Source: an uncultured Gammaproteobacteria bacterium (GTDB lineage: Bacteria > Pseudomonadota > Gammaproteobacteria > JABCZS01). From it: a DNA stretch of 64,000 bases. Positions 4,592 through 24,600 of this stretch are shown piece by piece; position 1 is the first letter of the stretch, and each line of letters begins with the position of its first letter. The position numbers and the translations under genes were made by a program. The notes beneath the pieces were generated by a model. It saw only the letters and a list, made by a program, of their open reading frames with translations, was not told the DNA's origin and searched no databases. The stretch spans positions 2,916 through 66,915 of the forward strand of contig CAYUEL010000002.1 in the NCBI GenBank assembly GCA_964443025.1, given 5' to 3'.

Positions 4592-6823
4592 TTAATGTTG
4601 ATAAATTTTTGCAAACTGAATTTTTAATAAATGGGCTGTTTCATTCATTAACTTCTCACCAATGGTATCCACGTGACGATTGCGCCAATCACTTAGCTCA
4701 GTTTGCTCAACCCAGCGATTAAATGCACCCATTGCTGGGCCAGTATGAACTTGGTAGTTGATTTTTTCTTCAGCATTTCCAGCTCGCGCAAGTCGAATGG
4801 AATGCATGAAATACCACCTGAAAACCAAAGCCAATTTGTGTTTTGTGTTTTTTTCAGCTTTTTCTATTTGAGAGGGATTGGTACGCAAAAAATATTGCTT
4901 TGTTTCTTCGTAGACCTCTAAAAATGTCTTTCCAAAATATTTTTCTTCGATTTGTTGCCGAGTTGATAAATCAATTGACTCCCAGGATTCATGATGTTGC
5001 CATAAATCATATAACTTATTCGCTCTTCCAGGAAAAAATACGCCCCTTTTCAAGACCTGTACTTTGGCACCTATTTCAAACATATCACCTGCAGGTGCAT
5101 ATTCTGTATCTTGGACATCCATTTTAGAAAGCATTTCTTTAACAACATCACTAGTTCCAGCTTCCACAGTGCATTGGTTAATCGAACCGGTTAAGATGAA
5201 ATCAGCTCCCAGAATAAATGCTGCTGCCGCGGATTCGGGAGTACCAATACCCCCCGCTGCACCCACCCGGACAGATTCTAAATAATGATATTCACGACAA
5301 ATTTTATCTTTCAAACGAATAATTGATGGTAATAAAACCATCATATTTCCCATATCAGTATGGCCGCCAGAATCTGCTTCCACGCAAATATCATCAGCTA
5401 TGGGAACTTGTGCAGCAAGGATGGCTTGTTCTTGTGTAATGTGTCCAGATTGCAAAAGCTCATCAAGCAATTTTGCAGGCGCGGGCCTTAAGAAAACTTC
5501 AGCAACTTCAGGTCTTGAAATTTTAGCCAAAATACGATGCTTAATTAGAACATTGCCGTGGCTATCTTTACTGAGTCCGCTTGCACGGTATTTTACAATC
5601 GCTTGGTTTAATTGGATATATGCAGCTGCTTCTATTTTATCAATCCGATACTTTAGAAATAGATCAATTAATTCAAGTTCAGATTCAACATTATTTAGTT
5701 TACATAAAAGATTCATGCCGAACGAAGATCCTTTGGCGATATTATTCTGAATATATACAATATCCTTTTCAATCAGGTCGATGCTCACGCCACCCGTGCC
5801 ATAATAACTCATCATGGCTGAGTTCGCCATTTTGACAACCATTTCTCTTGATGCGATGCCTTTCGCCATCGCCCCAGCAATATAAGCATAGCGAACATTA
5901 TAGCATTTTTTAAATGATTCCGAACCGAGAGTTTCCCCAGTAATTTTATTTGAATTAGGGTTTTCTTTTTCAATAATTGGCGGCACACTTTGAATTGATT
6001 TCAGCAAATTTGTTAAGACTTTTCCGGGTCCAATTTCTTTAAATTCTACAACCCCCTCTCTTAATAAATACAGGATAGAATCTGTCCATTGCACACAAGA
6101 AGATATTTGTTGGCTCAATAATTGATAAAATGTATTGCCTTGATAAGGTTTCCCAGTCACATTGGAAATTACAGGTATTTTTGGGGTAGAAAATTCTATC
6201 TCTTTAATAAACTCAGCAAATTCTTTCGCCGCAGATTGCATATGCTTAGAGTGAAAAGCTGCACTTACTTTAAGAGGGATATAAATCGCTTTAGCCGCCT
6301 CAAATAAAGTTTTTGCTTGAAAGATTTCATCTTTTTGACCTGAAATCACAATTTGTTCATGGCTGTTATAATTAGCAATATCAATAGAGTTTAATTGATT
6401 ATCTTGTAAGATTTTTTGAATCATATTCATCGGGCATTTAATAACAGCTGCCATCGCACCATTTTGAACTGTACTCATCAGTTCTCCACGTTTCTGAACA
6501 ATTTTAAGAGCCGTTTTAAAATCAACAACATCTGCAAGATGTAGTGCATTATACTCACCCAAACTATGCCCAATAAGGTAATCAACTTTACCTGGGTGTG
6601 TATTGCTATATTCAAGATAATGTAAGTAATTCACTATAAATAAGGCAACCTGTGTATATTTTGTCAGATGAAGTTGGTCGTAAGGATCATTCAAACAAAG
6701 TTCTTTGATTGAGTATTTTAATACCTCATCAGCTTCTTTTGTGACCTCATTAAAAGAATCAAATAAATCCCCCCCCATACCCTTTTGTTGAGATCCTTGA
6801 CCTGGAAACATATAAGCTTTCAT
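4592..6823 (-). CDS. Trans-acting acyltransferase fused to trans-enoyl reductase (AT-ER didomain, PksE-like)
   Basis: N-terminal FabD-like AT (FPGQGSQ, GHSLGEY, AAFHS). C-terminal FMN-dependent FabK/nitronate-monooxygenase-like ER (GAMAKGIAS, GTGGVSIDL). ATG at 6821-6823 with GGAG 8 nt upstream. Confidence 0.85.
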   Translation of the reverse strand: MKAYMFPGQGSQQKGMGGDLFDSFNEVTKEADEVLKYSIKELCLNDPYDQLHLTKYTQVALFIVNYLHYLEYSNTHPGKVDYLIGHSLGEYNALHLADVVDFKTALKIVQKRGELMSTVQNGAMAAVIKCPMNMIQKILQDNQLNSIDIANYNSHEQIVISGQKDEIFQAKTLFEAAKAIYIPLKVSAAFHSKHMQSAAKEFAEFIKEIEFSTPKIPVISNVTGKPYQGNTFYQLLSQQISSCVQWTDSILYLLREGVVEFKEIGPGKVLTNLLKSIQSVPPIIEKENPNSNKITGETLGSESFKKCYNVRYAYIAGAMAKGIASREMVVKMANSAMMSYYGTGGVSIDLIEKDIVYIQNNIAKGSSFGMNLLCKLNNVESELELIDLFLKYRIDKIEAAAYIQLNQAIVKYRASGLSKDSHGNVLIKHRILAKISRPEVAEVFLRPAPAKLLDELLQSGHITQEQAILAAQVPIADDICVEADSGGHTDMGNMMVLLPSIIRLKDKICREYHYLESVRVGAAGGIGTPESAAAAFILGADFILTGSINQCTVEAGTSDVVKEMLSKMDVQDTEYAPAGDMFEIGAKVQVLKRGVFFPGRANKLYDLWQHHESWESIDLSTRQQIEEKYFGKTFLEVYEETKQYFLRTNPSQIEKAEKNTKHKLALVFRWYFMHSIRLARAGNAEEKINYQVHTGPAMGAFNRWVEQTELSDWRNRHVDTIGEKLMNETAHLLKIQFAKIYQH

Positions 6824-6839: not shown

Positions 6840-9800
6840 TTAAACGTATTCAGTAGCAATTTTATATTTAACGGGTGATTCTTGCATATACAGTGCATGA
6901 CAAACCTGTGCAATTTGTGTTAGTATTTCTTCATTCTTAAAGAATGAAAAATGATCCTCTGCTTCTGTTTTATGAATATGCAGGTCTGGAATGACATTCT
7001 TCCATCTCTCTAAACAATTATTTCCTTTATAAAACTTATTTTGTAATGATACGTATTTATTCAAGAATAAACGATCTTGAAAATATTGATTTTTATGTTT
7101 TCTTCTAAAATAATGAAAAGATAAACAATCGGAATTTTCCAATGGTTTAATAATATGGTTTTCCATCGATCTGCTATTTGCGGAAAGAATTTCTTGGTGC
7201 ACACTCAAAATGCTTTTTAACTGTTTTTTTGAATAAGGTATTTTAAATTTGATACAAAAATCAACAAGAGTGTCTAAGTCAATTTCCAAATCCTCTGTCG
7301 CTAGCGGGGCCAGATCAATTTCAGCCAAATTAACGGTTTGAATTTGGCTTAGCATGTCGAATATGATAAGCAAGTAATACATATTTTTAGTCATATAAGT
7401 AGTAATTGGGGAAAATGGAGCATCTACCATTATAATACTTTGCACACGCCTTCCTGCTTTCATTAAATACCTTGCCACTTCATGCGCAATCACTCCCCCT
7501 TGCGAATATCCAGCTAAATGAAATGATGGGTCATCAAAATTATCCATTAATAGTGAGGCATAAATATGGGACATTTCTTCAATATTCGAGCAAGGGGTTA
7601 AATCCTCCTCCTTAACAAGGGAATGCATCGCGTAAAACGAAATTTCATCTTTCATTAACTGAGCTATTGGCTGATAGACTTGCGTGGTTCCAAACGCAGC
7701 ATGAAACCAAAATGTTTTAATATCCTTCGTTCCCTTTTTCAAAAGTTGGAAACTGTTTCTTTTAAATTTATTTTTTTTCATGCTAATTTTTTTATTTTTA
7801 TTTAAAAAAATAGCTTTGTATTTTTCAAACACAAATTGAGAGAGCTGATGAATTGTTGTGTGCTCTAAAAATACCGAGGGTTCTAAATGTATCAATGGAT
7901 ATTGGTTTAAAATTGCGTGTGCAAGTCCGGTGAGGGTAATGGAATCAAATCCATATTCACTTAGGTGTTTATAGATATCGATTTCTTCAGGCTCAATTTG
8001 AAGAATTTCCGCGACTATTTTCTCCAAACCTTCTTGGAATTTTACAAGATGATATTCATCCTGATCTGCAGTCAATGCCTTTAAATTCTTTTTAATATAT
8101 TGAGAATCCCAATCAAGAATTAAAGGATTGCTGCGATGCAATAAAGCTTGCTCGTATTCATTTTGATCAATTTCAGATGCAAGGAGTAAATTACTTAGCA
8201 CGTCATCGCTTAAAGCAGCTAATATCCTATATTTAACCAATTTTAGCTGGTCATCATTTGCATCCGTTTTAATATATGATTTTTTTGAAAATTCTTCCAG
8301 CATCGCTTCTGCCTGAGGATAAGTATGAAACCCCCTAAGGCGATGTATCATTGGAAACGCAGGATAATTTAATAATTTCCAGAATTTTTTGAATTCCTTT
8401 CTTGGATCGGGGAACAACCCAAGCCTGATGCCAAACAGCACACTCGATATGGGCGCCATAATCAAGTAATGTGCATCAGTAATTCGCGAATTTATTTCTT
8501 CATTGGTTAATAACAATTTTCCAGACAACATTTGCGAATACCATCTTGCAATCATTTCCATATAGTAAAATGATCCCGTATAAGCAATTGGGAGAACAGA
8601 TGTATTCACCAAAGTAAAATTATTTTTATAGAATATCCCCATTGAGAAATCATCTAGAACTTTTATGTTTTTTAGATAATTAAAGCGTGTATCATCATTT
8701 CCTATGTTTTTATAACCGGTGCAAAACACTATAATATCCACCTCATGCGCCTGTTGCAGCTCATCTTCAAACATGCACCCTGAAGAATAAAACGCTGCAA
8801 TGTCATTTTTAACTGTAATTTTCTTTTCAGCAACTTTTTTAACTACATGATCATTAATGTGCACTATTGGATTTAATGAAAACTCTTCAAATGTCGGCAG
8901 TATCCCGGAGTTTTCATATATTTTGAAATACTCGGGCATTGATTGGCGCAGTCTTTCGATGATATTGGTTCTATTTTCTTCAACCAATAAACTTGCCGGT
9001 GATTGGCAATCATTGGGCACAAAACCAACCATTCTGGGTAAAATTAACTTATTGGATCGCCTACTCCAAAATACTTCTTTTGCTACCTCACTCGCTTCAT
9101 CTGCAATATCCATTGCGCTCACGCCATTACCAATCACCAGAACACGCTTATTTTCAAATAATTTATTATTATAATATTCTCCTGAATGCATTATCTTGCC
9201 TTTAAATTCATTTAGACCTTGTTTTTCTGGAACATAAGGATCGGTAAAACTTCCTTGGCACATGGCCACACCATCATATATTTTTTTAATTTCTTGACCA
9301 TTGTGAGAAACAACCACTTCCCATTTTCTATTTTTTTCCTCTACCGAAATAACTTTACTGTTAAGCGTGATATGCGAGTTTAAATTATATTCTTTGGAAT
9401 ATAAGTTTAAATATTCCATCACCTCATTAACCGTATAAAAATTACTTTTAATTTTTTCAGGGTAAAAATCGGAGAATACGCTTGTAAAACGTGAGCTTTG
9501 AAATTTTGTATTTTGATAGGCGCCATTCTTTTTTTCTGCACTGTTATTAAGCGCCCACAGTCCACCGATGGTTCCTTTTTCTTCGTAGACATCTGGGCAA
9601 TGACCTTCTTCTAATAGTGATTTTGCCATGACCAAGCCTGCGGGACCAGCCCCAATGATGCAAATATTGAGTTTTTTATTTGACTCTTGTGAATTGTTCA
9701 CTCCTGGAAGCGCCCAATATTCTTTTAAATTAAATGGCATTTTTGGCAACGAAACCCGATAAGGTTTTTCACCTTGCTGATCCCTTACCCAACTTAGGTC

Positions 9801-11558
9801 TTGACCACCAACCCAAACCTTTGCTTTTTCTTCGATTGTTTGTGATAAAAATTGTGTTTTATGGATAGAATCCACGGCTTTGCCATGACCTTTTCCTTTG
9901 AAGATTTTAGGATTTTTTAATTCATGATTTAAATATTGGTTCATATTGCTGATTAATTCTTCAATGGTTTTCGCAATGAATGCAACTCTATATTCAAATG
10001 AATTTCTGCCCACCTGCAAAGTGAATTCTAAATCATCCATACGAACTGTATGATGTGGCAAATAATCAATCAGATCCTTCACCCAGCGATCAACCTGCTC
10101 TTCCGTGGGCGCCGATAATACAATAAGCCTATCTTTGGTTAGAGTCTGTACGCTTCGATCTCGACTTAAATATTCTTCTATCAATAAATGTGCATTATTA
10201 CCTCCTGAGCCATAGGAGTGTAAACCTGCTAATCGAGGTTCATTTTTTTTATTCCAGGCAAAAGAAGTTTTTAATAACTCACAAGGCATGCCTTCTACAT
10301 TGAGATGCGGATTGAGTTGATCAAGATTAATAATCGGATGGATGGTATTCGTGTGAAAACTTCTGATAATTTTTAATAATGCCCCGAGTGAAGATACACA
10401 CTCAATATGCACCATCATCGGCTTGAGTGTGCTGATTTTGCAATAACCAGGGGTGTAAGAAACCTCTGACTCCTGATACATTTGTTTCAGTGCAGTATTC
10501 AACGATTCCCACTCCACAAGATCTGCAACAGGGTTACCCATCCCCTGGGCCTCAATATATTCAATTTTTCGAATATCCGCGCCTGCATAACATTGCTTAA
10601 TCACCTCGACATGACTTTCTTTATGAGGTGCAGCAATTGAGCTTCCCCCTCGACCGTTATAGTTAATTGCAGCATTTTTTATGATGGCATAGATATGATT
10701 GTGATCACGTTCTGCCTCCGATCGTTTTTTTAACACGACAGTGATGACACCTTCGGCACGAACATACCCATCTGCATTTTCTCCAAATGAGAGTACCGTA
10801 TTTTTTGTACTAAGCACATTCAATTTTGATAAACCCACCAATACTTGAGGATTGAGAATGATTCGTGCCCCAGAAACCACTGCCATTTCAATTTCATTGC
10901 GATCTAAAGCTTGTTTAGCATAATAAATCGCTGTAGCAGTACTTGAGCACATGGTATTAATAATTTGTGAAGGGCCACGAAAATCAAAAAAATACGAAAT
11001 GCGATTAGCAGCCATGCTTGGGTGATGATTTAAACCGTTTAAACCTAAATCAATCTGGTGAGTTTTAAGCGCTTCTAAATATTCATTATCTTCTATGCCA
11101 ACGTATACACCAATTTTCTTTCCGCGTAAATTTTGAGAAGCATAACCGGCATCTTCTATCGCTTGATATGCAGACATTAGTAACAATTTGTGTTGAGGAT
11201 CCATAACCTTTGCTTCTGCAGGAAGAATTCCAAAAAACGCGGGGTCAAACATTTTGATAGAAGGAATAAACCCACCCCACTTGGTTCGCATTTTCGTCAA
11301 ATCATTTTTATCTGCGGAATAATACAAGGACCAATCAAAACGACTTTGGGGAATTTCTGTAATGACTGGTTTATCTAAATCTAAATGTTTCCAAAACTCT
11401 TCGACGTTCATCGCACCTGGTAAATAAGCACTGATGCCAACAATCGCAATACCGGTTTCATCCGATTTGACTGAACGGGTCTGTTTTTTTGCAACAAGAT
11501 CTTGCTGATAAGCCTCAAGTTTTTTTCTATAAATTTGTGCTAATTCATGTTGGTTCAC
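6840..11558 (-). CDS. Trans-AT PKS terminal module: KS0 - flavin monooxygenase (Ox) - ACP - thioesterase
   Basis: The KS keeps the active-site Cys (NTMCSST), but the HGTGT His is lost (EAQGMGN), so it is probably non-elongating. An FMO domain follows with GAGPAG and the FxGxxxHxxxY motif (FKGKIMHSGEYY), then a second Rossmann fold (VLVIGNGVSAMD). ACP (EYGFDSITLTG) and TE (GYSQGG) complete the module. GTG start is 4 nt after the LLM stop. Confidence 0.85.
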   Translation of the reverse strand: MNQHELAQIYRKKLEAYQQDLVAKKQTRSVKSDETGIAIVGISAYLPGAMNVEEFWKHLDLDKPVITEIPQSRFDWSLYYSADKNDLTKMRTKWGGFIPSIKMFDPAFFGILPAEAKVMDPQHKLLLMSAYQAIEDAGYASQNLRGKKIGVYVGIEDNEYLEALKTHQIDLGLNGLNHHPSMAANRISYFFDFRGPSQIINTMCSSTATAIYYAKQALDRNEIEMAVVSGARIILNPQVLVGLSKLNVLSTKNTVLSFGENADGYVRAEGVITVVLKKRSEAERDHNHIYAIIKNAAINYNGRGGSSIAAPHKESHVEVIKQCYAGADIRKIEYIEAQGMGNPVADLVEWESLNTALKQMYQESEVSYTPGYCKISTLKPMMVHIECVSSLGALLKIIRSFHTNTIHPIINLDQLNPHLNVEGMPCELLKTSFAWNKKNEPRLAGLHSYGSGGNNAHLLIEEYLSRDRSVQTLTKDRLIVLSAPTEEQVDRWVKDLIDYLPHHTVRMDDLEFTLQVGRNSFEYRVAFIAKTIEELISNMNQYLNHELKNPKIFKGKGHGKAVDSIHKTQFLSQTIEEKAKVWVGGQDLSWVRDQQGEKPYRVSLPKMPFNLKEYWALPGVNNSQESNKKLNICIIGAGPAGLVMAKSLLEEGHCPDVYEEKGTIGGLWALNNSAEKKNGAYQNTKFQSSRFTSVFSDFYPEKIKSNFYTVNEVMEYLNLYSKEYNLNSHITLNSKVISVEEKNRKWEVVVSHNGQEIKKIYDGVAMCQGSFTDPYVPEKQGLNEFKGKIMHSGEYYNNKLFENKRVLVIGNGVSAMDIADEASEVAKEVFWSRRSNKLILPRMVGFVPNDCQSPASLLVEENRTNIIERLRQSMPEYFKIYENSGILPTFEEFSLNPIVHINDHVVKKVAEKKITVKNDIAAFYSSGCMFEDELQQAHEVDIIVFCTGYKNIGNDDTRFNYLKNIKVLDDFSMGIFYKNNFTLVNTSVLPIAYTGSFYYMEMIARWYSQMLSGKLLLTNEEINSRITDAHYLIMAPISSVLFGIRLGLFPDPRKEFKKFWKLLNYPAFPMIHRLRGFHTYPQAEAMLEEFSKKSYIKTDANDDQLKLVKYRILAALSDDVLSNLLLASEIDQNEYEQALLHRSNPLILDWDSQYIKKNLKALTADQDEYHLVKFQEGLEKIVAEILQIEPEEIDIYKHLSEYGFDSITLTGLAHAILNQYPLIHLEPSVFLEHTTIHQLSQFVFEKYKAIFLNKNKKISMKKNKFKRNSFQLLKKGTKDIKTFWFHAAFGTTQVYQPIAQLMKDEISFYAMHSLVKEEDLTPCSNIEEMSHIYASLLMDNFDDPSFHLAGYSQGGVIAHEVARYLMKAGRRVQSIIMVDAPFSPITTYMTKNMYYLLIIFDMLSQIQTVNLAEIDLAPLATEDLEIDLDTLVDFCIKFKIPYSKKQLKSILSVHQEILSANSRSMENHIIKPLENSDCLSFHYFRRKHKNQYFQDRLFLNKYVSLQNKFYKGNNCLERWKNVIPDLHIHKTEAEDHFSFFKNEEILTQIAQVCHALYMQESPVKYKIATEYV
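7100..7830 (-). other. Thioesterase domain (approximate bounds)
   Basis: GYSQGG nucleophile elbow is encoded near 7495-7515 on the minus strand. The surrounding sequence fits an alpha/beta-hydrolase context. Confidence 0.5.
8700..9690 (-). other. In-line flavin-containing monooxygenase (BVMO-like Ox) domain of terminal PKS module (approximate bounds)
   Basis: Reverse-strand translation gives LNICIIGAGPAGL around 9600-9680, FKGKIMHSGEYY, and ends near IVFCTGYK around 8700. Confidence 0.6.
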
Positions 11559-11562
11559 GTGC

Positions 11563-12657
11563 TCACCTATATCTTTCTTTAAGCAATTGAAGATAAGATA
11601 ACGATTCTATAACTAATGAATAATCGACTCCAAAATCTAATAAGCATGCAATTTCATTAACGCCTACGCTGATAGCCTGATCAACCACCTGCTTGACCTC
11701 CGAAACAGGTCCAAATAAAGCACCGGTTTTTGAATAACGTTCAAATGAATATTCCACAATTTTATCAATTTCTTTTTCGCTGGGTTTTTCACCTTCTTTC
11801 ATCCCTTGAATATGGCCTGTTAATGCACTTTTAATGTATTGTGAAAAAGGTTCTCTGACGGCATGTTCAACCAACGATGCATTTTCATGAACTAAAGTGT
11901 GAAGCATTAAGGTGACAATGCCTGTTGCAGGATCAAAGCCGTGTTCAGCGCGCGCGTTGCGATAGATGGCAATTTTTCGACCAAGTTCTTGCAGATCAAT
12001 GCCTTGCAGCATCGTGAGCACATGATAACCACATTTACCAGCTTCATAAAAACTTTCGTCTAATTTTGTGACGACGAGCCAAATAGTGATTTCTGGTTGT
12101 AACGGCTCAGGGTAAGTGCGTACAGAAATCGATTTTTGATTCCCATTGATAAATGTGCAAGATTCACCACGCCACAATTGTTTTACCATTGCAATGCGTT
12201 CATGCCAGATTTCTCTTCTTTTAGAAAAATTTTCAGGGCAACTAATAAAATCGTTAGGATTCCACCCGCTCGCAAAACCTAAATCAACGCGACCATTTGA
12301 TAAATTATCTACTATAGACCACGTTTCCACTACTTCAGTGGGGTGATGCAAAGGCAATACAACAGAACCCGATCTCAAACGAATATGTTTAGTTTGCACC
12401 GCAAGCGCAGCGGCCAATGTGACAGGGCTTGGATAAATCCCCCCAAAAGGATGAAAATGTCTTTCAGGTAACCACACTGCTGTAAATTTATGCTGATCAG
12501 CAAATTGCGCAACGTCTAATACAAGTTGATATTTTTTCTTTGGATTTTGAGTTGCATCTGAAAAAAATATAAAACTAAAGTCAATACTGTTTTCCTTTTT
12601 ATTAAGTGATAACAAATCAGTTAATTTATTATTGCTTTCACTATATGACGTGTTCAT
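11563..12657 (-). CDS. Luciferase-like (flavin/F420-dependent) monooxygenase
   Basis: LLM fold starts at FSFIFFSD. The ORF opens at 12711, but the likely start is an internal ATG (MNTSYSE) near 12657. It overlaps the 3' end of the upstream PKS gene by a few codons. Confidence 0.75.
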   Translation of the reverse strand: MNTSYSESNNKLTDLLSLNKKENSIDFSFIFFSDATQNPKKKYQLVLDVAQFADQHKFTAVWLPERHFHPFGGIYPSPVTLAAALAVQTKHIRLRSGSVVLPLHHPTEVVETWSIVDNLSNGRVDLGFASGWNPNDFISCPENFSKRREIWHERIAMVKQLWRGESCTFINGNQKSISVRTYPEPLQPEITIWLVVTKLDESFYEAGKCGYHVLTMLQGIDLQELGRKIAIYRNARAEHGFDPATGIVTLMLHTLVHENASLVEHAVREPFSQYIKSALTGHIQGMKEGEKPSEKEIDKIVEYSFERYSKTGALFGPVSEVKQVVDQAISVGVNEIACLLDFGVDYSLVIESLSYLQLLKERYR

Positions 12658-15600
12658 TGTTTCTCCGTTTAGCAATGTATTTTGCAAACTTCTCAACAGT
12701 TGGATGTTCAATCAGCCAGCCGGGTTTAATTTCCATTCCGAGCAATCTCTCCAACGACAGACTTAATTGTGTTCCCGTAATAGAATCTAAACCATAATCC
12801 TGAAATGATTCATGAATCGATATATCCATTTCATTAATTTTAAGAACTTTTGCTAATTCAGTGGATATTTGATTGATCACATCACTATCATGAACGAAAT
12901 CCTGATGATGCACAACACTTTCTATTATATCTTTATTATTCAACTGCAATGAATCTCCTAACTTAATTATTTGATCATCACTTAAAGAAGGTATTTCAAG
13001 TTTGGCAATGAAAGAATCATAATCGTTAGGATGACTATTTTTCAAACCCTCAATTAGTTCATTAAAGGTTAATGATGAGTCATTTGTTTTAGGGCGAAGC
13101 TTGGATTTTCTGACGTGCATGATTTCAAATTTATTTTCATAAAAGTTTTTTATTTCGATAAAGGTGGGTAAAACGTTCGCTGCATTATACGTTATCGCTG
13201 CATTGAATAGCTGAAGACCTTCAGAGGTATTATTAAATATAAAACCTAAATTATGAGCATAAGCTTCAGAGTTGTTTTTTATAACTAAACTATGTGTATG
13301 ACTTCCCGCATCAGACCAGCCTGTCCAGTAAATATTATAATGTGATTTTTTGCCTCTCTTTCTTTCATACTCAGCAATATGCTCTAAATAAGCATTACCC
13401 ATACCATAATCACTCAAGCCTTTCATAAAACATGGAATCATTCCAGCTGTAGATGAAAAAGTAACAAAAAAGTCGAGATCATCTTTTTTAAACAGTCCCA
13501 TTAAAGTATCTAGCCCTTCTTGCTTGGGAGAAAGTACACGCGAAATGGTATCGATCGATTTTTTAACAAAAGCAACTTCACTTTCACGCATGGCAGCCAT
13601 TGCACCTGCGCTATGAATCACCCCTTTAATTGGAGGTCTTGTATTTCTGATTTGAGTAAAGAAATCATAAGCTGTATTCTGATTTTTAAGATCTCGGGTA
13701 TACAAATCAATTTGGGTTCCCAGGTTTTCAATTAAAATTAAATTTCTCAGCTTATGTTTCAGTTCATTGGGTAACCCTTCCTGATCGACAAGAGATGACC
13801 ATTCATTTCGAGGCGGCAACTCAGAAACGCCCATTAATATCAAATGTTTTGCGCCTAATCGAGCAAAATATTTAGCAAATTCCATTCCGATGCCACTAGT
13901 TCCGCCTGTTATCACATAAGTTGCATGCTGTGAAATAGATATATGGTTATTTAACTGCAAAGCAGTAATTTCCTGCTCTCGCAATATTGGAACATATCTT
14001 ACTTGATTGCGATAGATGATTTCAGACTCTTCTACTTCTTTGGCAACATCCTTTTGAATAATCTCCATGATTGAATTTATATTGATCAGATCGTCATCAA
14101 TATCAATGGTTTTGGCAAAAACATGTGAATATTCAACACTCAACATTTTTACCAGTCCTGTAAATTTTGCTCCAGCGAGATTTATTGAATTAGATTTAAA
14201 TGCTCTTAAATTTCGAGTCAGATGTATAATATAAATTTCAGTAAAATTCGCAATCAGTTTTTGATAGAACAACACTTTATTAATTTTATTTGTATCTGCA
14301 TCCTTATATTCTGAATATAAATCAGATAAATCAATCAAAATTGATGGATTGGTCAATTGCGCTTCTTTGTTTACTAAATCATGATAATGAATACAAGTCA
14401 CTTTCTTATTGAACCGCTTGACCAATTGATCCAGATCAATAATTTTTTCAGTCTGTTCATTAATTAATATAATCGCATCCTCATTCAAATACACGTTTGA
14501 GTTTTTGTTGATACTTTTTTCTACCCAGTCTATTGTTACAAATGACGCTTTGGCTTGGTTTTTCTCTTGTATTTGTCCATATTTAAACCGGCCGTGATCC
14601 TTATATTTGATAAGGTTCATATCCTTCTGCTTTTCTAAACCTTTTATCCATTCATTAAGTAGGATTTTTATTTTCACTTGAGGCGATGTTTCATTATCAA
14701 CTCCAACTACTTTTAACCTGATATTTGAATAAACTAGAGGATAAAAACTTTTCAAGGATGCATCTGATAATTCCGTCATCAAGTAAATATCCAATTTATC
14801 CAGCTGGGTCAATTGGTTCATTAATTGATGGGTTTCTTCCAAACTTACAGAGGATTGTTTCATGATAAAAACTGATCCTGCTGCTTCACCTTGACCCAAC
14901 AAAGACGTTGTCTCACTCCATAAACATGCTTTGAAAGAAAGCCGCACTTGAGCCGCATCAAAAAGCACTGAATTAATATCATTGATCAGGTCACTCAATA
15001 TATTAAATTCCGCGGCATCATAATAAATAAAAATAATATTAGTATTCTGTTTATTTTTTATTTGATTAATCCAATCATTTTCTTGTGGGAGCTCTGAGCT
15101 TATCCACTCTCCACTTATCTGATCGTGTGATACCTTTTGAGGCATGACCGGGACTTTACTGATTTCTATTGGCTTAGTCACCCAATATTTTCCTTTCGAA
15201 AATGGATAGGCAGGCAATGATATTCGTTTTGGTGTAGAAGAATTTTGATAAAGGTTATTCCAATTGATTCTCAACCCCTTGGTCCAAAAGCTAGCCAATT
15301 TATCAAAATTCCGGTTCATTTCCCATTTTTCAATCACCCCTTTCATTTCTGAATCATGATTCAGAAATTCAATATTATCGTCATGTTCATGAACTTGCCC
15401 ACAATAAAGAAATTTAGATTCATCTGCTTTATTTTCAATCCAGTGTTGCAAACCTTGCAGAAGTTGCGGCACTTCATCAATAATCAATGCCAATCGATGC
15501 TTATAAGCCTCTCGCCCTATTTGCAGCGTATATGCTAAATCACTTAATGAGACCGCTTGATTTTCCTTCACGAACTTTAATAATAGTTCTGCGTAGCTTT

Positions 15601-18600
15601 TTAAACTCTCTGGCGTTTTAGCAGATAACACCATCAAGTAAGGACCTTCCGTTATACTTTCTCCTCGCATGTCCACATACTCTTCAACAACTACATGCGC
15701 ATTCGAACCCCCAGCACCAAACGAACTCACACCCGCAACCCGCGGATACTCTATTCCGTTAATCACGGGCCGATTCCAAGATGTAAGCTCTCGTTGCACC
15801 TTAAATGGCGTTGCCGTAAAATCAATATGAGGATTTAATTCTTCAGCATGAATCGATGGCACCAGCTCTTGATGCTGCATTTGCAATAACACTTTAGTCA
15901 CACCCGCAATACCTGCAGCTGATTCGCAATGCCCAATATTCGATTTCGCTGAACCAATTGCACAATATTGCCTTTCCTGCGCCTCTTCATAAGCACGTGT
16001 TAATCCCGCAATTTCAATCGGGTCTCCCAATTGAGTGCCAGTCCCATGTGCTTCAACATAACTTACATGCCGTGGGTTAACTTTTGCTTCTGCTAACGCT
16101 TGTTGAACCACATGCGCTTGTGCGTTAGGATTAGGGACTGTATAACCGTTCGTTTTCCCGCCATGATTAATCGCACTGCCTTTAATCACCGCGTAAATGT
16201 GGTCTCTATCTTCGATCGCAGTAGCTAATGGCTTAAGTACAACACAACCCACCCCTTCACCAGGAATGTAACCATCCCCACCTTTACCAAAACTTTCACA
16301 TCGACCCTGGCTGGAAATAAAATTATTTTGACTGAGTAAAATATATTTATTCGGATGAATGCTAATATTCACACCACCTGCAATCGCCATTTGGCAATGC
16401 CCTGCTTTTAACGCTTGGCAAGCTAAGTGAATGGTCGTAAGTGATGATGAACACATGGTATCCAATGCCATACTAGGACCATTAAAGTCACAGACATAAG
16501 AAACTCGATTAGCAATGCTGGCCGGGTTACCACCCACACCTTGCAACATGGGTGCTCCATATAAAGGGTACTCTTCATACATAACGCCCACATAAACACC
16601 CACATTCCCAGCAATCTTCGAGTTTTTTAAACTCTCACGCGTATAACCACTGTCTTCTAATGCGTGCCAAGCACTTTGTAAAAACAGACGCTCTTGCGGG
16701 TCCATCAACTCCGCTTCACGTGGAGAAATATTAAAAAATAATGGATCAAACTCATCCACCCCTTCAATAAATCCACCCCATTTGCTTTTAATACTGGATT
16801 CATAATCATACATATTCCAATACGTAGGTGGAATCGTGGTAATGCAATTTTTTCCAGTTTTTAAATGATGCCAAAAATCAGATAAAGTCGGCGATTGAGG
16901 ATAGCGTCCACTCAAACCAATGATCGCAATATCCATCGTGGCTGACTTTGAAGCCATTGGAATAAAGCGCGAAGCCTGAGGCAATAATACAGAGTGCATG
17001 ACTTCAAGGCTTTTCACCGGTTGCTGAATATTTAAAATCTGAGTTAACTTAGCATGATGGTGCTTAATTAAATAATCAGAAAGCTCCAGCAAAGTCTGGT
17101 ACTCAAAAAATAATGTCTTGGGTAATACACCAAATTGCTCTTCTAGCACACTGGTTAATTCCAAAATCATCACTGAATCTATCCCATATTGATCTAAAGT
17201 CACATCAGATTTGAGACGATTGATTGGCATTTTTAAGATTACTGCCACTTTTCCTTTCAGGTATTGATCTGTTTTATCTAGCAATTGGGCATCAACGGTG
17301 TCTAGGTTAATCGGCGCATTATCCAGCACGGGCCCTTCATGGAACAACAATTGTTTACGTATTACTTCAGGATTTCCTTGCATTACTAAGCAATGAGAAT
17401 CACTCAATTGCATTACCTGCTCAAATGCAGATAAGCCTATTTCTGTTTCCATAGCGACTAAGCCTGTTTCACGCGTAATCCGCGCAAGACTCGCCGCATC
17501 GATTTGCATACCGCCAGATTTCCATAATGGCCAATCGATTGCAGCCATTCTACCTTGACGCAATCCCTGAGCGGCTAACTGATTATAATCATGTGCATAA
17601 GCGTCTAAAAATGCATTTGCTCCTGCATAATCAGCTTGCCCAAGGCTGCCAAACTGTCCTGCAAGAGAAGAGAATAAAACGATGAAATCAATATTTTCAT
17701 TTTGTAATGCTTTATCAAGATTTAAAACGCCTGTAATTTTAGGTCTTAGCACAGACTCAATTTCTTGATGTTTTTTCTTGAGGATAAATGCATCGCGAAT
17801 TACACCAGCACTATGAAAAACGCCATTGAGGTGACCATACTGTGTTTTAATCGTTTGTACAGTTTCTAAAACCGCAGATAAATCGCTTACATCGCAGCAT
17901 ACATATTCAACCGCCATGCCTTTATTACGCAACATGGATAATATTGTTTTCGCCGATTCATTTAAAGCAGAGCGACCAGATAGAATCAATGTAATATGTG
18001 AAAAAGTGGATAAATAATCAGCAAATATTAACCCCAAGCCGCCTAAACCACCGGTTAACCAATAGACTCCATGTTCTTTAATTACAGATCGTGCGCTCTT
18101 TCTAAAGTGTAATTCTTTAAATTGTTTGATAGAACGCTGACCTTTTGCATCATAGCGCACTTCCACCGCATTATCTGCAACTGTTTTTTCACGATTGATA
18201 ATCTCAACCATTTGCGTTTTATCAGCAATTGATATGAGCTTACCTATGAAATTTGGATTTTCCCGTCTAGCTGTTTTTAATAATCCTGCTAAAGAGGCAT
18301 AATAATGTTCTACTTGATTATCTAATACTAAAAACCAAATGTGCTTTTGGTGCGTCAGCTTTTCTTTTAATATTAATTGTACATGATCAAAAGCTGATAT
18401 AAAACATTGTTCAATCGATGAGCTCGCAATAGTATGTATTGATAATTCAGAGATTTTATCTTTCAATTCCCCAAGAGAATCAAAAAGGACAACCTCGATA
18501 TTGGTTAATGCGTCTTGTATCGCTGGCAATGAAGGTTGCCAAAGCGCTTGCGCAAGCACCAAATCTTCAGGCTCAAGCCTCGATTGAACTGCACGAATAC

Positions 18601-21600
18601 TCAACCCTTTAAGTGCGACACAAACTTGCCCCTGTTCATTGATTAAATCAAAATCATAACGCTGAGTTTCATTTTGACTGCCACTAGATTTTCGCTGTGC
18701 GTGAGCATAAACTTTGTTTGATAATGGGCTTAAGCATTGAATCTCTTCAATTGAATATGGCAAATAAAGTGTCGAATGATTTATTTTTTCAGATCTTAAT
18801 GCAAGAATTGAGTGTAAAGCGGCGTCAACTAAAACAGGATTAAACTCAAAATAACCATTATTTTCTGTGGTACTGATTTCTGATAGTGACTCTTGTTCAT
18901 TAAAAATGACCTTTTGAATTGTTTTAAAAGACTCTCCATAATGAATCCCCATTTTGTGGTATTGCGCATACAATGAATCTGGGGTCAAATTTTTTGTGCA
19001 GCGACTTTCAATCGCAGATAAATCAACAAATTTACTACTTTCAATTGAAGCGAGAATCACGTGGCCCTCGCTAAAAATGAGTCCGGTATTGTCTTTGATC
19101 TCATACACAATTTCATCACTGGATAGTGGATGTAGATGAATCATCACAGTTGTGGATTGAGTGACTCTAATCGGACGTGTCCAAGTAATATTTTTAAAAA
19201 CACCAATTAAGCCAGCAGTTGAGAGTGTCACTGCAGCACGCGCCATTTCGATATGACAGACACCCGGCAACACTGGAGTTGTGTTAATCACATGGTCACG
19301 CAAAAATAATTCATGACTGTAAAATGTAGTTTCAAAGGCTTGGCTAGCCAGTGTTGAAATATTTTTATCGATAAGAGGATGTAATTTTTGAACATCTTTT
19401 TCATGCTTGACGCCGTCAACCCAATAACGCTCTTTAGCAAATGGATAAGTTGGCAAAGAAATTCTCTTTGGCATTGGTGTTGATGTGTAAAGCTGCTTCC
19501 ATTCGATAGGATAACCTTGAACCCATAATTCTGATAATTTTTCAAACTTTCTTTTACCAACCCAGATATTTACCAATTGAGAAAAGTCTTCATCTTGACC
19601 TAATAAATCCATGGATGGATTAAATTGTAAAGTATTCCCAAAATAATAATGTTGTATTGAGGTATGCTGATCTTCTGCAATTTTTTGCAAATGATCGCAA
19701 AACGTTTTATGATCATAGGTGAGGAAAGCCATTCGATATTCCATGGCCTCTCGCCCTATTTGCAGCGTATATGCTAAATCACTTAATGAGACCGCTTGAT
19801 TTTCCTTCACGAACTTTAATAATAGTTCTGCGTAGCTTTTTAAACTCTCTGGCGTTTTAGCAGATAACACCATCAAGTAAGGACCTTCCGTTATACTTTC
19901 TCCTCGCATGTCCACATACTCTTCAACAACTACATGCGCATTCGAACCCCCAGCACCAAACGAACTCACACCCGCAACCCGCGGATACTCTATTCCGTTA
20001 ATCACGGGCCGATTCCAAGATGTAAGCTCTCGTTGCACCTTAAATGGCGTTGCCGTAAAATCAATATGAGGATTTAATTCTTCAGCATGAATCGATGGCA
20101 CCAGCTCTTGATGCTGCATTTGCAATAACACTTTAGTCACACCCGCAATACCTGCAGCTGATTCGCAATGCCCAATATTCGATTTCGCTGAACCAATTGC
20201 ACAATATTGCCTTTCCTGCGCCTCTTCATAAGCACGTGTTAATCCCGCAATTTCAATCGGGTCTCCCAATTGAGTGCCAGTCCCATGTGCTTCAACATAA
20301 CTTACATGCCGTGGGTTAACTTTTGCTTCTGCTAACGCTTGTTGAACCACATGCGCTTGTGCGTTAGGATTAGGGACTGTATAACCGTTCGTTTTCCCGC
20401 CATGATTAATCGCACTGCCTTTAATCACCGCGTAAATGTGGTCTCTATCTTCGATCGCAGTAGCTAATGGCTTAAGTACAACACAACCCACCCCTTCACC
20501 AGGAATGTAACCATCCCCACCTTTACCAAAACTTTCACATCGACCCTGGCTGGAAATAAAATTATTTTGACTGAGTAAAATATATTTATTCGGATGAATG
20601 CTAATATTCACACCACCTGCAATCGCCATTTGGCAATGCCCTGCTTTTAACGCTTGGCAAGCTAAGTGAATGGTCGTAAGTGATGATGAACACATGGTAT
20701 CCAATGCCATACTAGGACCATTAAAGTCACAGACATAAGAAACTCGATTAGCAATGCTGGCCGGGTTACCACCCACACCTTGCAACATGGGTGCTCCATA
20801 TAAAGGGTACTCTTCATACATAACGCCCACATAAACACCCACATTCCCAGCAATCTTCGAGTTTTTTAAACTCTCACGCGTATAACCACTGTCTTCTAAT
20901 GCGTGCCAAGCACTTTGTAAAAACAGACGCTCTTGCGGGTCCATCAACTCCGCTTCACGTGGAGAAATATTAAAAAATAATGGATCAAACTCATCCACCC
21001 CTTCAATAAATCCACCCCATTTGCTTTTAATACTGGATTCATAATCATACATATTCCAATACGTAGGTGGAATCGTGGTAATGCAATTTTTTCCAGTTTT
21101 TAAATGATGCCAAAAATCAGATAAAGTCGGCGATTGAGGATAGCGTCCACTCAAACCAATGATCGCAATATCCATCGTGGCTGACTTTGAAGCCATTGGA
21201 ATAAAGCGCGAAGCCTGAGGCAATAATACAGAGTGCATGACTTCAAGGCTTTTCACCGGTTGCTGAATATTTAAAATCTGAGTTAACTTAGCATGATGGT
21301 GCTTAATTAAATAATCAGAAAGCTCCAGCAAAGTCTGGTACTCAAAAAATAATGTCTTGGGTAATACACCAAATTGCTCTTCTAGCATGCCTGTCAACTT
21401 CAGAACCATAATAGAATCAATGCCAAGATTTTCCATCTTTGCATTTTCATTGATTTTTTCTAATTTAATTTTTAAGCTCTCTGCAAGACTCCTTTTTAAA
21501 TAACTCACTGTGTATTTTTTTAACTCAAAATCATTCGTTTGCGAATGTTGTTGAATAGGTTCAGATATCAAGTTTTGCACGGGGGGATGATGCTTGAATT

Positions 21601-24600
21601 CAGAAAGATTTGAAATCCAATACGATTCTTTTGCAAAAGCATAAGTGGGTAGGGACATCCTGTATGGCTTGTGCTCAGAATAAAATTGCTCCCAAGGAAT
21701 TGTATGGCCTTGGCACCACAGCTTTCCAATTTCTTGCTCAGATAAGGAAAACAAATCAGATTGAATTTGATTTGATTCATGTTCTATTTCATTAACAGCA
21801 GCTTTATTTAAATCAGCTATCAATCCATCAATATTTTTGGCATAAAATACGGCGCGATATTCATAATGATCCCTTCCCACCTGCAAGGTATAAGCAAGAT
21901 TTTTTAATTGAATTTCAGTTTTATGTTGACTTAAAAATTGTTGTAATTGATGAATCGATTCAATGGCTTGTTCTTTAGTTTTAGCCGAAACAGGAACAAT
22001 ATGTATTTTATCTTCTACTTTATTCTCTAAGGCTACATTTTCAATATATTCTTCAAGCACAATGTGTGCGTTAACTCCACCAAAACCAAAACTACTTACT
22101 CCAGCGCGCCGAGGCCATTCTTTGCCTTCTTTTGTTTTTATCCTCTTCCAAGGCTGGGTTTTCTGGATGAGGTAAAAAGGAGATTGCTCTAACTGAATAT
22201 ATTCATTTACCTGCTCGCTGTATAAACTTTTTGGCAATGTTTGATACTTCATTGCCAGCAACACTTTGATAAGACCCGCCACGCCTGCAGCCAATTCCAA
22301 ATGACCAATATTGGTTTTTACAGAACCCAAGCCACAATAAGGGTGAGATTCAACACTCTGTTGCTCTTGAGATAGTTCTGAAAACGCTTTTTTAAGACCA
22401 TTGATCTCGACCGGATCGCCAATTGGTGTTCCCGTTCCATGTGTTTCAATGTATGTAATGGAGTTGATAGGTACTTTAGCAGCTCGGTAAGCCTGTTTGA
22501 TTAATTCTGCTTGCGCATTGGCATTGGGCGCTGTGAGTGAATTTGCTCGACCTCCATGATTTTCAGCACTAGCCTTAATAACTGCATAAATATGATCATG
22601 GTCTTTTTCTGCTAAATCAAGGCGTTTCAGTAATAATATCCCGACACCCTCGCCCCTCACATATCCATCCGCATTGCTAGAAAATGTTTTACACTTTCCT
22701 TCTGGGCTTAACATGCCTGCTTTTGCAAAGCTTAGATGCGCTTCACTGGATAAAAGTGTATTGACACCACCTACAATCGCATATTGGCATAAACCACTTT
22801 TTATCGATTCAACACCTCGGTGAATAGCTACCAATGAACTTGAGCACGCTGTTTCGATGGGTTCACTTGGGCCATGCAGATTCAAAAAATAGGAAATTCG
22901 GCTACTGCCGATCGATGGAGTGATTGCAGAAGCAGTGTATCCTTCAACAGGCACATGATTAAAAACACGTTGTTGATAGCCTGTTGAAGCGGTTCCAATA
23001 AAAACGCTAGTTTGTGAGCCCCACAAAGATTTTAAAGCATAACCTGCATCATAAACTGCAGCACATGCAAACTGCATGAGTAATCGTTGCTGAGGGTCCA
23101 TGTATTCCGCCTCAGCGGGTGAAATACCGAAAAATGCCGGATCAAATTCATGAACACAGTCAATAAACCCGCCTTTTTTAAATTTTTCATCTATAGAAAT
23201 AAAATCAATTCGATCAGAAGGTGCCTTCGTGATGCAGTCAAATTCTTGTATTAAATTTTGCCAAAACTCAGCGACATTACTTGCGCGCGGGAATGTTCCA
23301 CTAATTCCGATAATAGCAACATCTGCTGGTGAGAAATCTTGTTCAATTTCAACTGGTAATTTTTCTACATCTACAACATGAGTTGGCAAACGATCGTCTT
23401 TAATTTGTGTCATCAAATAATCTCTAAAATTATTTAATGTGGGATATTCAAAGAAAATGGTCGGCATAATATTTAGTGAATACTGTTGATTAACCACATT
23501 CGCAAGTTCAGTCAGCGTAATTGAGTCCATGCCAAACGCACTAACTTCCTCATCAAAGAAAATATCCTTCTCAGAAACATTTAAAATTTTACACGTTGAA
23601 GTGGTTAGGAACTGTTGGATTGACTGCTTAGAATCAAGTGATGAAGTTTCAGCTCGCTTATTTACGAGTTCTCTTGTTGTAAATGACTGAATTACGCAAC
23701 ACACATTACCCTCTTGACCGCATATCAGAATATCATATTTTTTAACAGTCCCCGAAGATTCAGGGGATAATTTTGTATAAATAAATCCATGCTCTGGAAT
23801 TTTTGTTAATTGATGAATTTTAGTTACTGCAAAAGGCAAACTTGGACTAGGATTTTCTAGAGTCAATTTTGCATTTAAGCCTATGATGCTTTGAAACGCA
23901 GCATCCATCACACTAGGGTGGATTACAAAAGTATTTTGTGTCTCAGAGGGTGGTAAATGAAATTCAGCCAAACTTTCGTTTCCATTCACCCAAAATTCTG
24001 TAATACATTTGAAATGTTTACCATAATGAATCTGCTGATCAGAAAACATTTGATAGATTTTTTCGTGTGCCAGGGTAAAACGAGAGTCTTGCTTTAATTG
24101 ATTTATGTTGACCTTTTCTTCACCATGAGTTTGATTCAAAAACTCAATAAAACCTGTTGCATTGATTTTTTTCGGCGTATCGCGACAAGCGACTTCAAAG
24201 AAATATTTCCCTTCTTTAAGATGTAAACGAATATCCACCGCAACAGAATCATCCAAACAGACAATAGGCGCAAGAAACACTAAGTGGTTAATGCTAAAAG
24301 AAGAATCAGGTTGAATGCCACGTGCAGCATGGCTTGCAAGATCAATATAAGCTGCACCAGGCAGCATTTTTTTTTGATCAATAATATGCTCTGCCAAAAT
24401 AAATTCATTCTGATGAAAATAACCTTGGTAGTGATAACGATCCAGCTGTGACACGTGAGACGTCAAGGTAAACCTTTGTGGTTCATTTATTTCATCACTC
24501 ATCCAACAGCGCTCGCCTGCAAATGGATATACAGGTAATGAGATAAAGGTTGCGCCGTCATGTTTAATTTGGTTTTTCCAATCGACCGCCTTGCCATTGA

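Follow-up and report, generated by a model that had tools for sequence, protein, structure and literature searches.

What does an oxygenase do when it sits inside the last module of a polyketide assembly line, directly ahead of the release of the chain? The question is raised by a trans-acyltransferase (trans-AT) polyketide synthase (PKS) cluster that dominates a 64,000-nucleotide stretch of DNA from an uncultured gammaproteobacterium (assembly GCA_964443025.1, contig CAYUEL010000002.1, positions 2,916 to 66,915). We call this whole stretch the window and number positions within it; its GC content is ∼37%, and the cluster features named below lie on the minus strand unless stated otherwise. 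The terminal PKS gene of the cluster, pksC (6840..11558), encodes a 1572-aa protein in which a flavin-dependent oxygenase domain (here Ox) stands behind a nonelongating ketosynthase (KS0) and is followed by an acyl carrier protein (ACP) and a thioesterase (TE). A preliminary description of the locus had read Ox as a Baeyer-Villiger-type oxygenase, an interpretation that our results do not support. The best-supported hypothesis, to which we assign a rough probability of 0.45, is that Ox would epoxidize a double bond of the ACP-bound chain and that a hydroxyl group placed on C2 by a neighboring luciferase-like monooxygenase (LLM) would then open the epoxide to form a tetrahydrofuran (THF) ring before the chain is released.

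The open reading frame (ORF) list, the translation, and Pfam agree on the anatomy of pksC. The ORF starts at a GTG codon, and its product is identical to the public protein P0017, encoded on a 74-kb NCBI contig, at 1571 of 1572 residues, the sole difference being residue 1. Pfam matched the N- and C-terminal ketoacyl-synthase regions at residues 36-412, a KS flanking linker at 427-544, an FMO-like domain (PF00743; FMO, flavin-containing monooxygenase) at 631-1014 with an E value of 8e-53, PP-binding at 1178-1243, and Thioesterase at 1283-1381. The KS0 domain (residues 36-412; 10323..11453), defined by Pfam and by an alignment of the ten KS domains of the window, keeps its active-site Cys204 within TMCSST (residues 202-207) as well as its second His (MMVH), but the first His is replaced by Gln in the motif EAQGMGN (residues 336-342; 10533-10553). 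Because the other nine KS domains read E[AT]HG[TS]GT, the terminal KS is singular in the window. A KS flanking subdomain resembling those of RhiE and CurL (residues 427-544; 9927..10280; PF22336, PF22621, PF16197) leads into Ox (residues 629-1157; 8088..9674), which consists of a class B FMO core and a C-terminal helical extension and was assigned with PF00743, a full-length alignment to the structure 8ODW, a profile search, a tree, and discriminating residues. Behind it lie the ACP (residues 1176-1245; 7824..8033), with its phosphopantetheine Ser1205 in GFDS (Pfam PP-binding, phmmer, and alignment with the ACP of 8ODW), and the TE (residues 1276-1572; 6843..7733; PF00975), with the nucleophile elbow GYSQGG (residues 1350-1355; 7494-7511) and a DHF motif close to the C terminus. 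The order KS0-FMO-ACP-TE at 6840-11558, the loss of the HGTGT His, the ACP followed by a GYSQGG thioesterase, and the position of the oxygenase directly before release had all been given in the preliminary description; since every element that it listed was found in place, its observation is confirmed. A scan of the genome contigs with the whole 1572-aa protein returned distant KS matches only.

Is Ox equipped for catalysis? The domain carries two dinucleotide-binding motifs, GAGPAG (residues 636-641; 9636-9653) and GNGVSA (residues 810-815; 9114-9131), together with FKGKIMHSGEY (residues 785-795; 9174-9206), which matches the FxGxxxHxxxY pattern, and FCTGY (residues 945-949; 8712-8726), which matches the (A)TGY pattern; its active-site loop, FQSSRFTSVFSDF, is encoded at 9465-9503. 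These features make it a class B flavoprotein monooxygenase, and the FAD and NADPH signatures, the two folds and FxGxxxHxxxY of the preliminary description among them, are all intact. A silent Ox, serving as a structural spacer between KS0 and ACP while the LLM and the cytochrome P450s of the cluster carry out all oxidations, would not be without parallel, as inactive domains are common in trans-AT PKSs, with several in SdlR (PMC7619045), and the last elongating module of this line carries a probably degenerate, unassignable insert of its own. We nevertheless regard a silent domain as very unlikely, given that GAGPAG, FxGxxxHxxxY, GNGVSA, and TGY are all preserved and that Ox is conserved at 57 to 62% identity across six lineages that together span 32 to 66% GC.

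We then asked to which family of oxygenases the domain belongs. An exhaustive profile search of 1.84 billion representative proteins set apart some two dozen domains embedded in PKSs, which scored 690 to 957 bits, from the next matches at ≤432 bits. A word-indexed protein search, run with the single sequence and with a profile, recovered six short relatives only and missed all long PKS proteins. In a neighbor-joining tree with 300 bootstraps, which did not include the named OocK, PedG, TobD, and LbmC-Ox sequences, the top-scoring group was monophyletic with 100% support and contained 8ODW, the Ox domain of Fr9GH, and the Ox of the window. Among solved structures the nearest is 8ODW, the Ox-ACP didomain of Gynuella sunshinyii, whose alignment spans its full length and takes in the ACP (E value 3e-183, 47-48% identity); ancestral mammalian FMOs (1e-44) and the type I Baeyer-Villiger monooxygenase (BVMO) PAMO (1e-16) follow in the PDB. 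The window's Ox is 48% identical to 8ODW, 46-47% to Fr9GH-Ox, 33 to 37% to other PKS Ox groups, and <31% to free FMOs. Monophyly, a domain length of ∼525 aa, the C-terminal helical extension, and placement after a KS all mark Ox as a member of the PKS-integrated Ox family. Fr9GH itself was found by tblastn of plasmids, in the annotated fr9 cluster on plasmid p1 of the spliceostatin producer Burkholderia sp. FERM BP-3421, with Ox at the C-terminal end of the protein. The names of the second-tier Ox groups revealed no OocK, LbmC, or other named enzyme.

Two side observations concern the wider family. One metagenomic trans-AT cluster (L009, a 43-kb contig of JGI 3300071300) holds two Ox types, of which P0028 (DH-KS-KR-ACP-KS-Ox; DH, dehydratase; KR, ketoreductase) belongs to the LbmA/Fr9 family and P0042 (KS-Ox) to a more distant PKS Ox group with 35% identity. 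In addition, >200 enterobacterial conjugative plasmids in PLSDB (Escherichia coli, E. albertii, Klebsiella, and Salmonella) encode a free-standing FMO-like protein ∼28% identical to Ox, and its gene adjoins that of a SemiSWEET transporter.

Can Ox be a BVMO, inserting oxygen beside a β-keto group in the manner of OocK or LbmC-Ox, or at the thioester to give a thiocarbonate, with hydrolysis by the TE to follow? Class B flavoproteins with both dinucleotide folds intact include the BVMOs, and PAMO was detectable at an E value of 1e-16. The type I BVMO fingerprint, however, contains a Trp, unlike the FMO-type FxGxxxHxxxY that Ox carries, and the two characterized relatives placed in its family are a presumed oxime-former (8ODW) and an epoxidase (Fr9GH-Ox). 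PKS-associated oxygenases of the same broad class do perform Baeyer-Villiger chemistry (PMC6174933; PMC7586987). OocK and PedG act in trans after a KS-pseudoDH-ACP module that has no KR and leaves a β-keto thioester (PMC6174933), and LbmC-Ox lies inside an elongating module that contains a methyltransferase (MT) domain (PMC7586987). These enzymes resemble the window's Ox in being flavin- and NADPH-dependent oxygenases of trans-AT lines with thioester-bound substrates, but they use β-keto thioesters from KR-less modules, and those of the OocK type are free-standing. In the published phylogeny, OocK, PedG, and TobD (clade I) and LbmC-Ox (clade II) fall in clades apart from those of LbmA-Ox and spliceostatin (PMC7586987). 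Neither context was found in the window: Ox is integrated and fused behind a nonelongating KS, there is no MT domain, the preceding KS-KR-ACP module has intact KR motifs and an apparently active KR, and no β-keto group is predicted. The oocydin-type setting suggested in the preliminary description thus has no KR-less upstream module to rest on. A thiocarbonate-forming activity, from thioester, was once reported in vitro for the related Fr9 Ox, and that proposal was later replaced by epoxidation (PMC6174933; PMC7619045). Essentially, Ox clusters with non-BVMO N-hydroxylases (8ODW being closest, at 48%), an outcome that the preliminary description itself had set against its reading. Taken together, these data make Baeyer-Villiger oxidation by Ox quite unlikely.

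The proximity to 8ODW raises a different question: is Ox an N-oxygenase that makes an oxime or a hydroxylamine? Such a role was proposed for the KS0-Ox module of LbmA, which follows a glycine module of nonribosomal peptide synthetase (NRPS) type and is the presumed maker of the lobatamide oxime (PMC7586987). The window's module and the 8ODW/LbmA type share fold, length, helical extension, the following ACP, and the FAD and NADPH motifs, and the KS0-Ox-ACP order is that of LbmA (PMC7586987); the 48% identity to 8ODW, its best solved-structure match, spans both Ox and ACP. The LbmA-type module differs in following a glycine module made up of an adenylation (A) domain and a peptidyl carrier protein (PCP), in leading to further modules rather than to a TE, and in its KS0 motif, EAHGTAS instead of EAQGMGN. 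No adenylation, condensation, or aminotransferase domain was found in any ORF of the window, and the chain starts at a loading KS with a Cys-to-Ser exchange. The chain that reaches the terminal module is for this reason a pure polyketide, and oxime formation is ruled against because it needs a primary amine and the window offers no source of one.

The tree and the active-site loop point the same way. The Ox domains preceded by A domains form one clade with 8ODW (93%) that leaves out the window's Ox, and A-domain motifs were present in seven of seven members of that oxime clade with visible N termini and in none of the window's subclade. The latter (99%) comprises P0017, which is the window's protein, P0022, P0023, P0029, P0001, and P0018. 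Where complete, its members all read KS-Ox-ACP...TE, with TE homologues in P0022, P0023, P0029, and P0018; EAQGMGN was read in five of the six, the motif of P0023 not being caught by the search pattern. At 23 discriminating positions the two clades are each conserved and mutually different. The loop signatures are FQ-N-S-x-D and C-H-G-R in the oxime clade, FQ-S-S-(R/K/M)-(F/Y) and C-Q-G-S in the window's subclade (FQSSRF and CQGS in the window itself), and FQ-T-S-K-(Y/F/H) and C-(Q/H/N)-G-(M/L/A) in the Fr9 and intermediate groups. In the window, the Asn, Asp, His, and Arg that mark the oxime clade are thus Ser, Phe, Gln, and Ser, the charged Asp and Arg corresponding to F691 and S770. We considered whether the oxime-clade Asn is the canonical catalytic Asn of FMOs and rejected this: in the HMMER alignment the position of mammalian FMO Asn61 is Gln687 in the window and Gln in all these PKS domains, and the variable residue is the next one. 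An oxime or hydroxylamine product is therefore largely refuted by context, and we consider it extremely improbable. The phylogenetic check proposed in the preliminary description has a divided outcome: Ox does nest with full support in the LbmA-like/Fr9 Ox family of PKS domains, yet in a subclade of its own, outside the oxime clade. The assignment to an LbmA/Fr9-type Ox, in a separate subclade and coupled to a putative MupA-type hydroxylase, is well supported at the level of sequence.

What, then, would a pure polyketide offer such an enzyme? On-line epoxidation by PKS-integrated flavoenzymes has precedents in Fr9GH/Fr9I, in MmpE (KS0-ACP-OR), and in SdlR, a class B FMO (PMC7619045; PMC7586987), and the Fr9 Ox is assigned as an epoxidase, not a BVMO (PMC7586987; PMC6174933; PMC7619045). 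Fr9GH-Ox, of the spliceostatin/FR901464 pathway, shares with the window's Ox the family, a pure polyketide context, a 3-hydroxy-3-methylglutaryl-CoA synthase (HMGS) cassette in the cluster, and an ACP-bound substrate. The window's Ox, 47% identical to Fr9GH-Ox, would also have olefins within its reach, from a DH-KR module two steps upstream and from the HMGS cassette. The two differ in that Fr9GH-Ox follows an elongating KS (EAHGTGT) at a protein C terminus, within a split module KS-Ox | KR-ACP-ACP that comes after a triple-ACP β-branching module; it lacks a KS0, an LLM partner, and a neighboring TE, and belongs to another subclade, grouping with P0036, P0035, P0019, and P0003 (71%). Neither this subclade nor the split-module architecture is that of the window's Ox. 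We also considered the FR901464 Ox as part of a termination module and discarded this, as the plasmid record places it four KS upstream of the TE-bearing end. MmpE of mupirocin is alike in that a KS0 hands a finished chain to a dedicated ACP and an integrated flavin monooxygenase epoxidizes an olefin before a cyclic ether is formed, but its OR domain is class A (PHBH-like), stands after the ACP, and has no TE behind it; its likeness to the class B FMO of the window is one of analogy rather than homology.

The Fr9 precedent allows a second form of epoxidation, or another oxygenation, in which Ox would act at another site of the chain (the β-branch-derived C14=C15 olefin, an exo-methylene as in spliceostatin, or an allene precursor), unconnected with an α-hydroxyl or a THF ring. 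Fr9GH-Ox epoxidizes a β-branch exo-methylene (PMC7586987; PMC7619045), SdlR provides a precedent for remote epoxidation (PMC7619045), the KS0-Ox gene occurs together with an HMGS cassette both in the window and in three homologous loci, and the Fr9 group shares the state of the window's subclade at 10 of the 23 discriminating positions compared with 4 shared with the oxime clade. Nevertheless, the β-branch module of the window lies six modules upstream of Ox, and both the strict co-occurrence with an LLM and the invariant DH-KR and KR upstream modules, described below, direct attention to the thioester-proximal end of the chain. We consider epoxidation elsewhere rather unlikely.

The LLM gene (11563..12657; Pfam Bac_luciferase and NCBIfam) provides the second component of the proposed chemistry. 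Its probable start is the ATG at 12657, which stands behind GGAG and overlaps the stop codon of the PKS gene located upstream; the longest ORF extends to 12711. The protein scored 430 bits against TIGR04020, the MupA family (cutoff, 244), its best PDB match is 6KET, and it is predicted to be an FMN-dependent α-hydroxylase. Its ORF ends in TGA and the GTG of pksC follows 4 nt later, in agreement with the preliminary description, which had placed a second flavin oxygenase at this stage. In the α-hydroxylation bimodule of mupirocin, oocydin, and calyculin, an LLM operates across a protein junction of the form KS-KR-ACP | LLM | KS0-ACP (PMC10952193). The window has the same parts: a MupA-family LLM encoded between an elongating module that ends in KR and ACP and a protein that starts with KS0, as for MupA (MmpD/MmpA in mupirocin), OocM, and CalD. 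A plain ACP and further extension come after the KS0 in the published cases, whereas in the window a second oxygenase lies between KS0 and ACP and a TE comes next, so that two flavoenzyme classes share one nonelongating terminal module. Judged by its gene order, the combination of KS0 and LLM is thus a putative α-hydroxylation bimodule with an Ox domain inserted, which sharpens the earlier remark on the LLM.

Is this arrangement peculiar to the window? The layout [KS-DH-KR-ACP][KS-KR-ACP] | LLM | KS0-Ox was found in all four loci with a visible upstream region, namely, the window (GC content, 37%) and three unrelated loci, L003 (39%), L004 (44%), and L007 from Archangium violaceum (CP069396.1, 7.16-7.19 Mb; 66%). 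LLM orthologues occupy the same position in L003, L004, and L007 with 56-63% identity, the HMGS cassette adjoins the KS0-Ox gene in each of the three, and orthologues of the AT-enoyl reductase (ER) protein described below are 55-57% identical in L004 and L007. The Archangium locus has an extra KS0(EAQGTGN)-ACP ahead of its TE. Identities of 56-69% from locus to locus for the accessory enzymes LLM, HMGS, and AT-ER, in spite of the range in GC content, indicate the wide horizontal spread of one cluster family through hosts of 32 to 66% GC, including that of a further locus, L005. That LLM | KS0-Ox-ACP-TE constitutes a previously unrecognized termination bimodule, in which α-hydroxylation followed by γ,δ-epoxidation would yield a 2,5-linked THF on-line before macrolactonization, is a proposal that we put forward tentatively and with more doubt than confidence.

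To determine what reaches this module, we mapped the domains of the assembly line with phmmer seeds, inspection of KS motifs, KR alignment, and Pfam. The gene pksA (27467..39799; 4110 aa) encodes KS1-ACP, KS2-KR-ACP, KS3-ACP, KS4-KR-ACP, and KS5, and pksB (12641..27466; 4941 aa) encodes DH-ACP, KS6-DH-ACP, KS7-ACP, KS8-DH-KR-ACP, and KS9-KR-ACP. The line thus comprises an acetate-type loading KS with a Cys-to-Ser exchange and eight extensions, with a β-branch-type module at position 3. KS1 (38624-39730), at the N terminus of pksA, carries Ser where the active-site Cys would be expected (DTASSSAL) and retains its two His residues, and the ACP behind it carries FSS in place of the usual DS motif; by its sequence, KS1-ACP looks like a decarboxylating loading module of the unusual "KS-S" type. 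Module 3 is a reduction-free KS-ACP whose ACP reads DSIVGIEF, a sequence that resembles the β-branch flag.

The penultimate module, KS8-DH-KR-ACP (17069..21172; phmmer map), is the predicted source of C4=C5, and its DH has the His and the DxxxH motif. The last elongating module (12662..16933; phmmer map, KS motifs, and KR alignment) consists of KS9, ∼640 aa made up of a linker and an unassigned insert, KR9, and ACP9. KR9 is divergent and lacks the Asp of LDD in the KR alignment; its Rossmann motif, Ser, and Tyr are intact. The predicted role of this module is to provide a 3-hydroxy group and the platform for α-hydroxylation, and the chain on arrival at the terminal module is predicted to carry the 3-hydroxyl from KR9 and the C4=C5 double bond from module 8. 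Two features of this region stand on their own. Between KS9 and KR9 (13916-15844), and at the equivalent places in L003, L004, and L007, the KS-to-KR spacing is ∼620-840 aa, compared with ∼400 aa in the other two DH-less KS-KR modules of the window; the extra 220-290 aa had no Pfam match even at an E value of ≤10, show poor conservation from locus to locus, and are probably a degenerate extra domain, of which the Archangium copy keeps a Rossmann-like GTSALG motif. Furthermore, pksB contains an exact direct repeat of 1,642 nt (15507-17148 and 19746-21387; the wider repeat extends over 1,685 nt at 98.9%), so that over 447 aa the regions of KS8 and KS9 show 100% identity; the cause is gene conversion or intermodule duplication of very recent date, or else an assembly artifact.

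On this basis we propose the following sequence of events. The KS9-KR-ACP module would build a 3-hydroxyacyl chain that contains the C4=C5 double bond made by KS8-DH-KR-ACP. The MupA-family LLM, encoded between the two PKS genes, would hydroxylate C2, as in the mupirocin and oocydin bimodules. KS0, which keeps its Cys and has lost the His for decarboxylation, would hand the chain unextended to the ACP of the Ox module, giving a 2,3-dihydroxy-4-enoyl thioester. Ox, with FAD, NADPH, and O2, would epoxidize C4=C5; the 2-hydroxyl would attack the epoxide at C5 to form a 2,5-anhydro-3,4-diol, a THF ring; and the TE would release the chain by macrolactonization. The product would be an archangiumide-type C18 macrolide with one β-branch methyl group.

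The comparison with archangiumide bears on several of these steps. This macrolide of A. violaceum SDU8, C19H26O6, has, judging by its total-synthesis fragments, a linear C18 chain with a 15-methyl on the trisubstituted C14=C15 alkene, oxygens at C16 and C17, an allene at C11-C13, and a C6=C7 alkene, and its D-chitaric acid unit comprises the C1 carbonyl, a C2-O-C5 THF, and hydroxyls at C3 and C4, the lactone being the sole ester (PMC10835656). The line in the window is predicted to give a C18 chain with a C15 methyl, a C17 hydroxyl (from the KR of module 2), C3 and C2 hydroxyls, and C4=C5, so that both ends of archangiumide match its module order, and a homologous cluster, L007, is located in an A. 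violaceum genome. From these likenesses we infer a link to archangiumide. The C4-OH/THF oxygen pattern would be what an LLM and an epoxidase together produce, and in archangiumide the oxygen of this pattern is the only one left unexplained by KR, LLM, or P450, a further point against epoxidation at another site. Moreover, if the cluster family makes archangiumide, its uninterrupted C1-C18 chain, which contains no inserted ester, argues against Baeyer-Villiger chemistry.

Several considerations weigh against epoxidation followed by THF formation. Closure at C5 would place both epoxide carbons in the new ring, which is normally disfavored unless C5 is allylic; module 7 is without KR and DH, both of which would be needed for C6=C7, and an allylic C5 is therefore not guaranteed. 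The clade that joins all pure-PKS Ox domains, Fr9GH-Ox included, has a bootstrap of just 36%, so that epoxidase chemistry is not inherited by phylogeny alone, and the subclade of the window's Ox is uncharacterized. We take 8ODW, the closest structure, to be LbmA-Ox, with which its Ox-ACP order and the A-domain-preceded clade are consistent, and Minas et al. (2023) reportedly gave biochemical proof of oxime formation. As for the product, modules 5 to 7 (DH-ACP, DH-ACP, and ACP) offer no obvious source of C6=C7, of the saturated C8-C10 segment, or of the allene, so that the compound made by the window's cluster may differ from archangiumide; since the PKS proteins of Archangium and L004 are ∼1,500 aa longer than pksB, it may be a congener. 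L007 may correspond to the published arc cluster, as a candidate link only. Finally, the early in vitro study of the Fr9 Ox, later reinterpreted as noted above, means that members of this family could still insert oxygen (PMC6174933).

The β-branching cassette (42856..47136; Pfam and a small ORF) consists of two enoyl-CoA hydratase (ECH) genes, a KS(DC), an ACP (45633-45908), and an HMGS homologue. Directly downstream of pksC lies a trans-acting AT fused to an ER-like domain (4592..6823; Pfam Acyl_transf_1, NMO, and FabD_helical_ins). The accessory genes as a whole comprise two ATs, one of them ER-fused, a phosphopantetheinyl transferase (PPTase), the HMGS cassette with its two ECHs, two P450s, two methionine aminopeptidases (MetAPs), and an ABC transporter. 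Beside the PPTase gene, inside the cluster and on the plus strand (40777-41217), is a gene for a 146-aa U-box protein, a eukaryote-type E3 ubiquitin ligase; this domain is typical of bacteria living inside eukaryotic cells. A 1070-aa protein (49682-52894), encoded between the two P450 genes on one side and the second MetAP gene on the other, matches in its C-terminal half the head of poly(A) polymerases and CCA-adding nucleotidyltransferases (PcnB-like, below the family cutoff), and its first ∼580 aa match nothing. The right end of the window (55912-61275) has genes of mobile elements and encodes a PIN-domain protein, ArdA, a second antirestriction protein, and a type IV coupling protein of the TraD/TrwB type. 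Searches of plasmid collections with the DNA of this end and with the TraD protein found no close relative, the best matches, Legionella and Vibrio among them, reaching ∼31%. With the GC content of 37% and the U-box gene, these weak TraD matches allow no more than a guess at a Legionellales-like host. The PKS cluster may lie on or beside a conjugative element.

The two MetAP genes, both for type I enzymes, are at 39808-40653 and 52990-53844; their products exceed the cutoff of TIGR00500 and are 66% identical to each other. An M24/MetAP gene also stands beside the KS0-Ox homologues of L005 (5064-5867; a JGI metagenome contig) and L007 (25053-25829; A. violaceum). From one locus to another the copies share just 40-49% identity, pointing to separate recruitment. 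It is possible that the MetAPs of the cluster confer self-resistance to a MetAP inhibitor. The proposed 2-O,3,4-dihydroxy-ene motif resembles the metal-binding polyol of the bengamides.

What do these findings mean for the family? Few parts of trans-AT PKSs are harder to predict than integrated oxygenase modules, and a wrong call between Baeyer-Villiger oxidation, oxime formation, and epoxidation alters the predicted backbone; FMO motifs together with a KS0 are insufficient to diagnose Baeyer-Villiger chemistry in a module. Subclades defined by context make up the LbmA/Fr9 Ox family, and one of them is always tied to a thioesterase and a hydroxylase of the MupA type. Should the proposed chemistry be correct, the LLM and Ox would form a portable two-enzyme device that installs a hydroxylated THF at the carboxyl end of a polyketide, and the chitaric acid-like unit of archangiumide would have a biosynthetic origin. 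A bengamide-like polyol would then explain, as self-resistance, the extra type I MetAP genes in or near the clusters of three unrelated lineages, and the cluster family, found in several phyla across a range of 32-66% GC, would gain methionine aminopeptidase as a testable target, including a target hypothesis for archangiumide, which showed no activity in standard assays.

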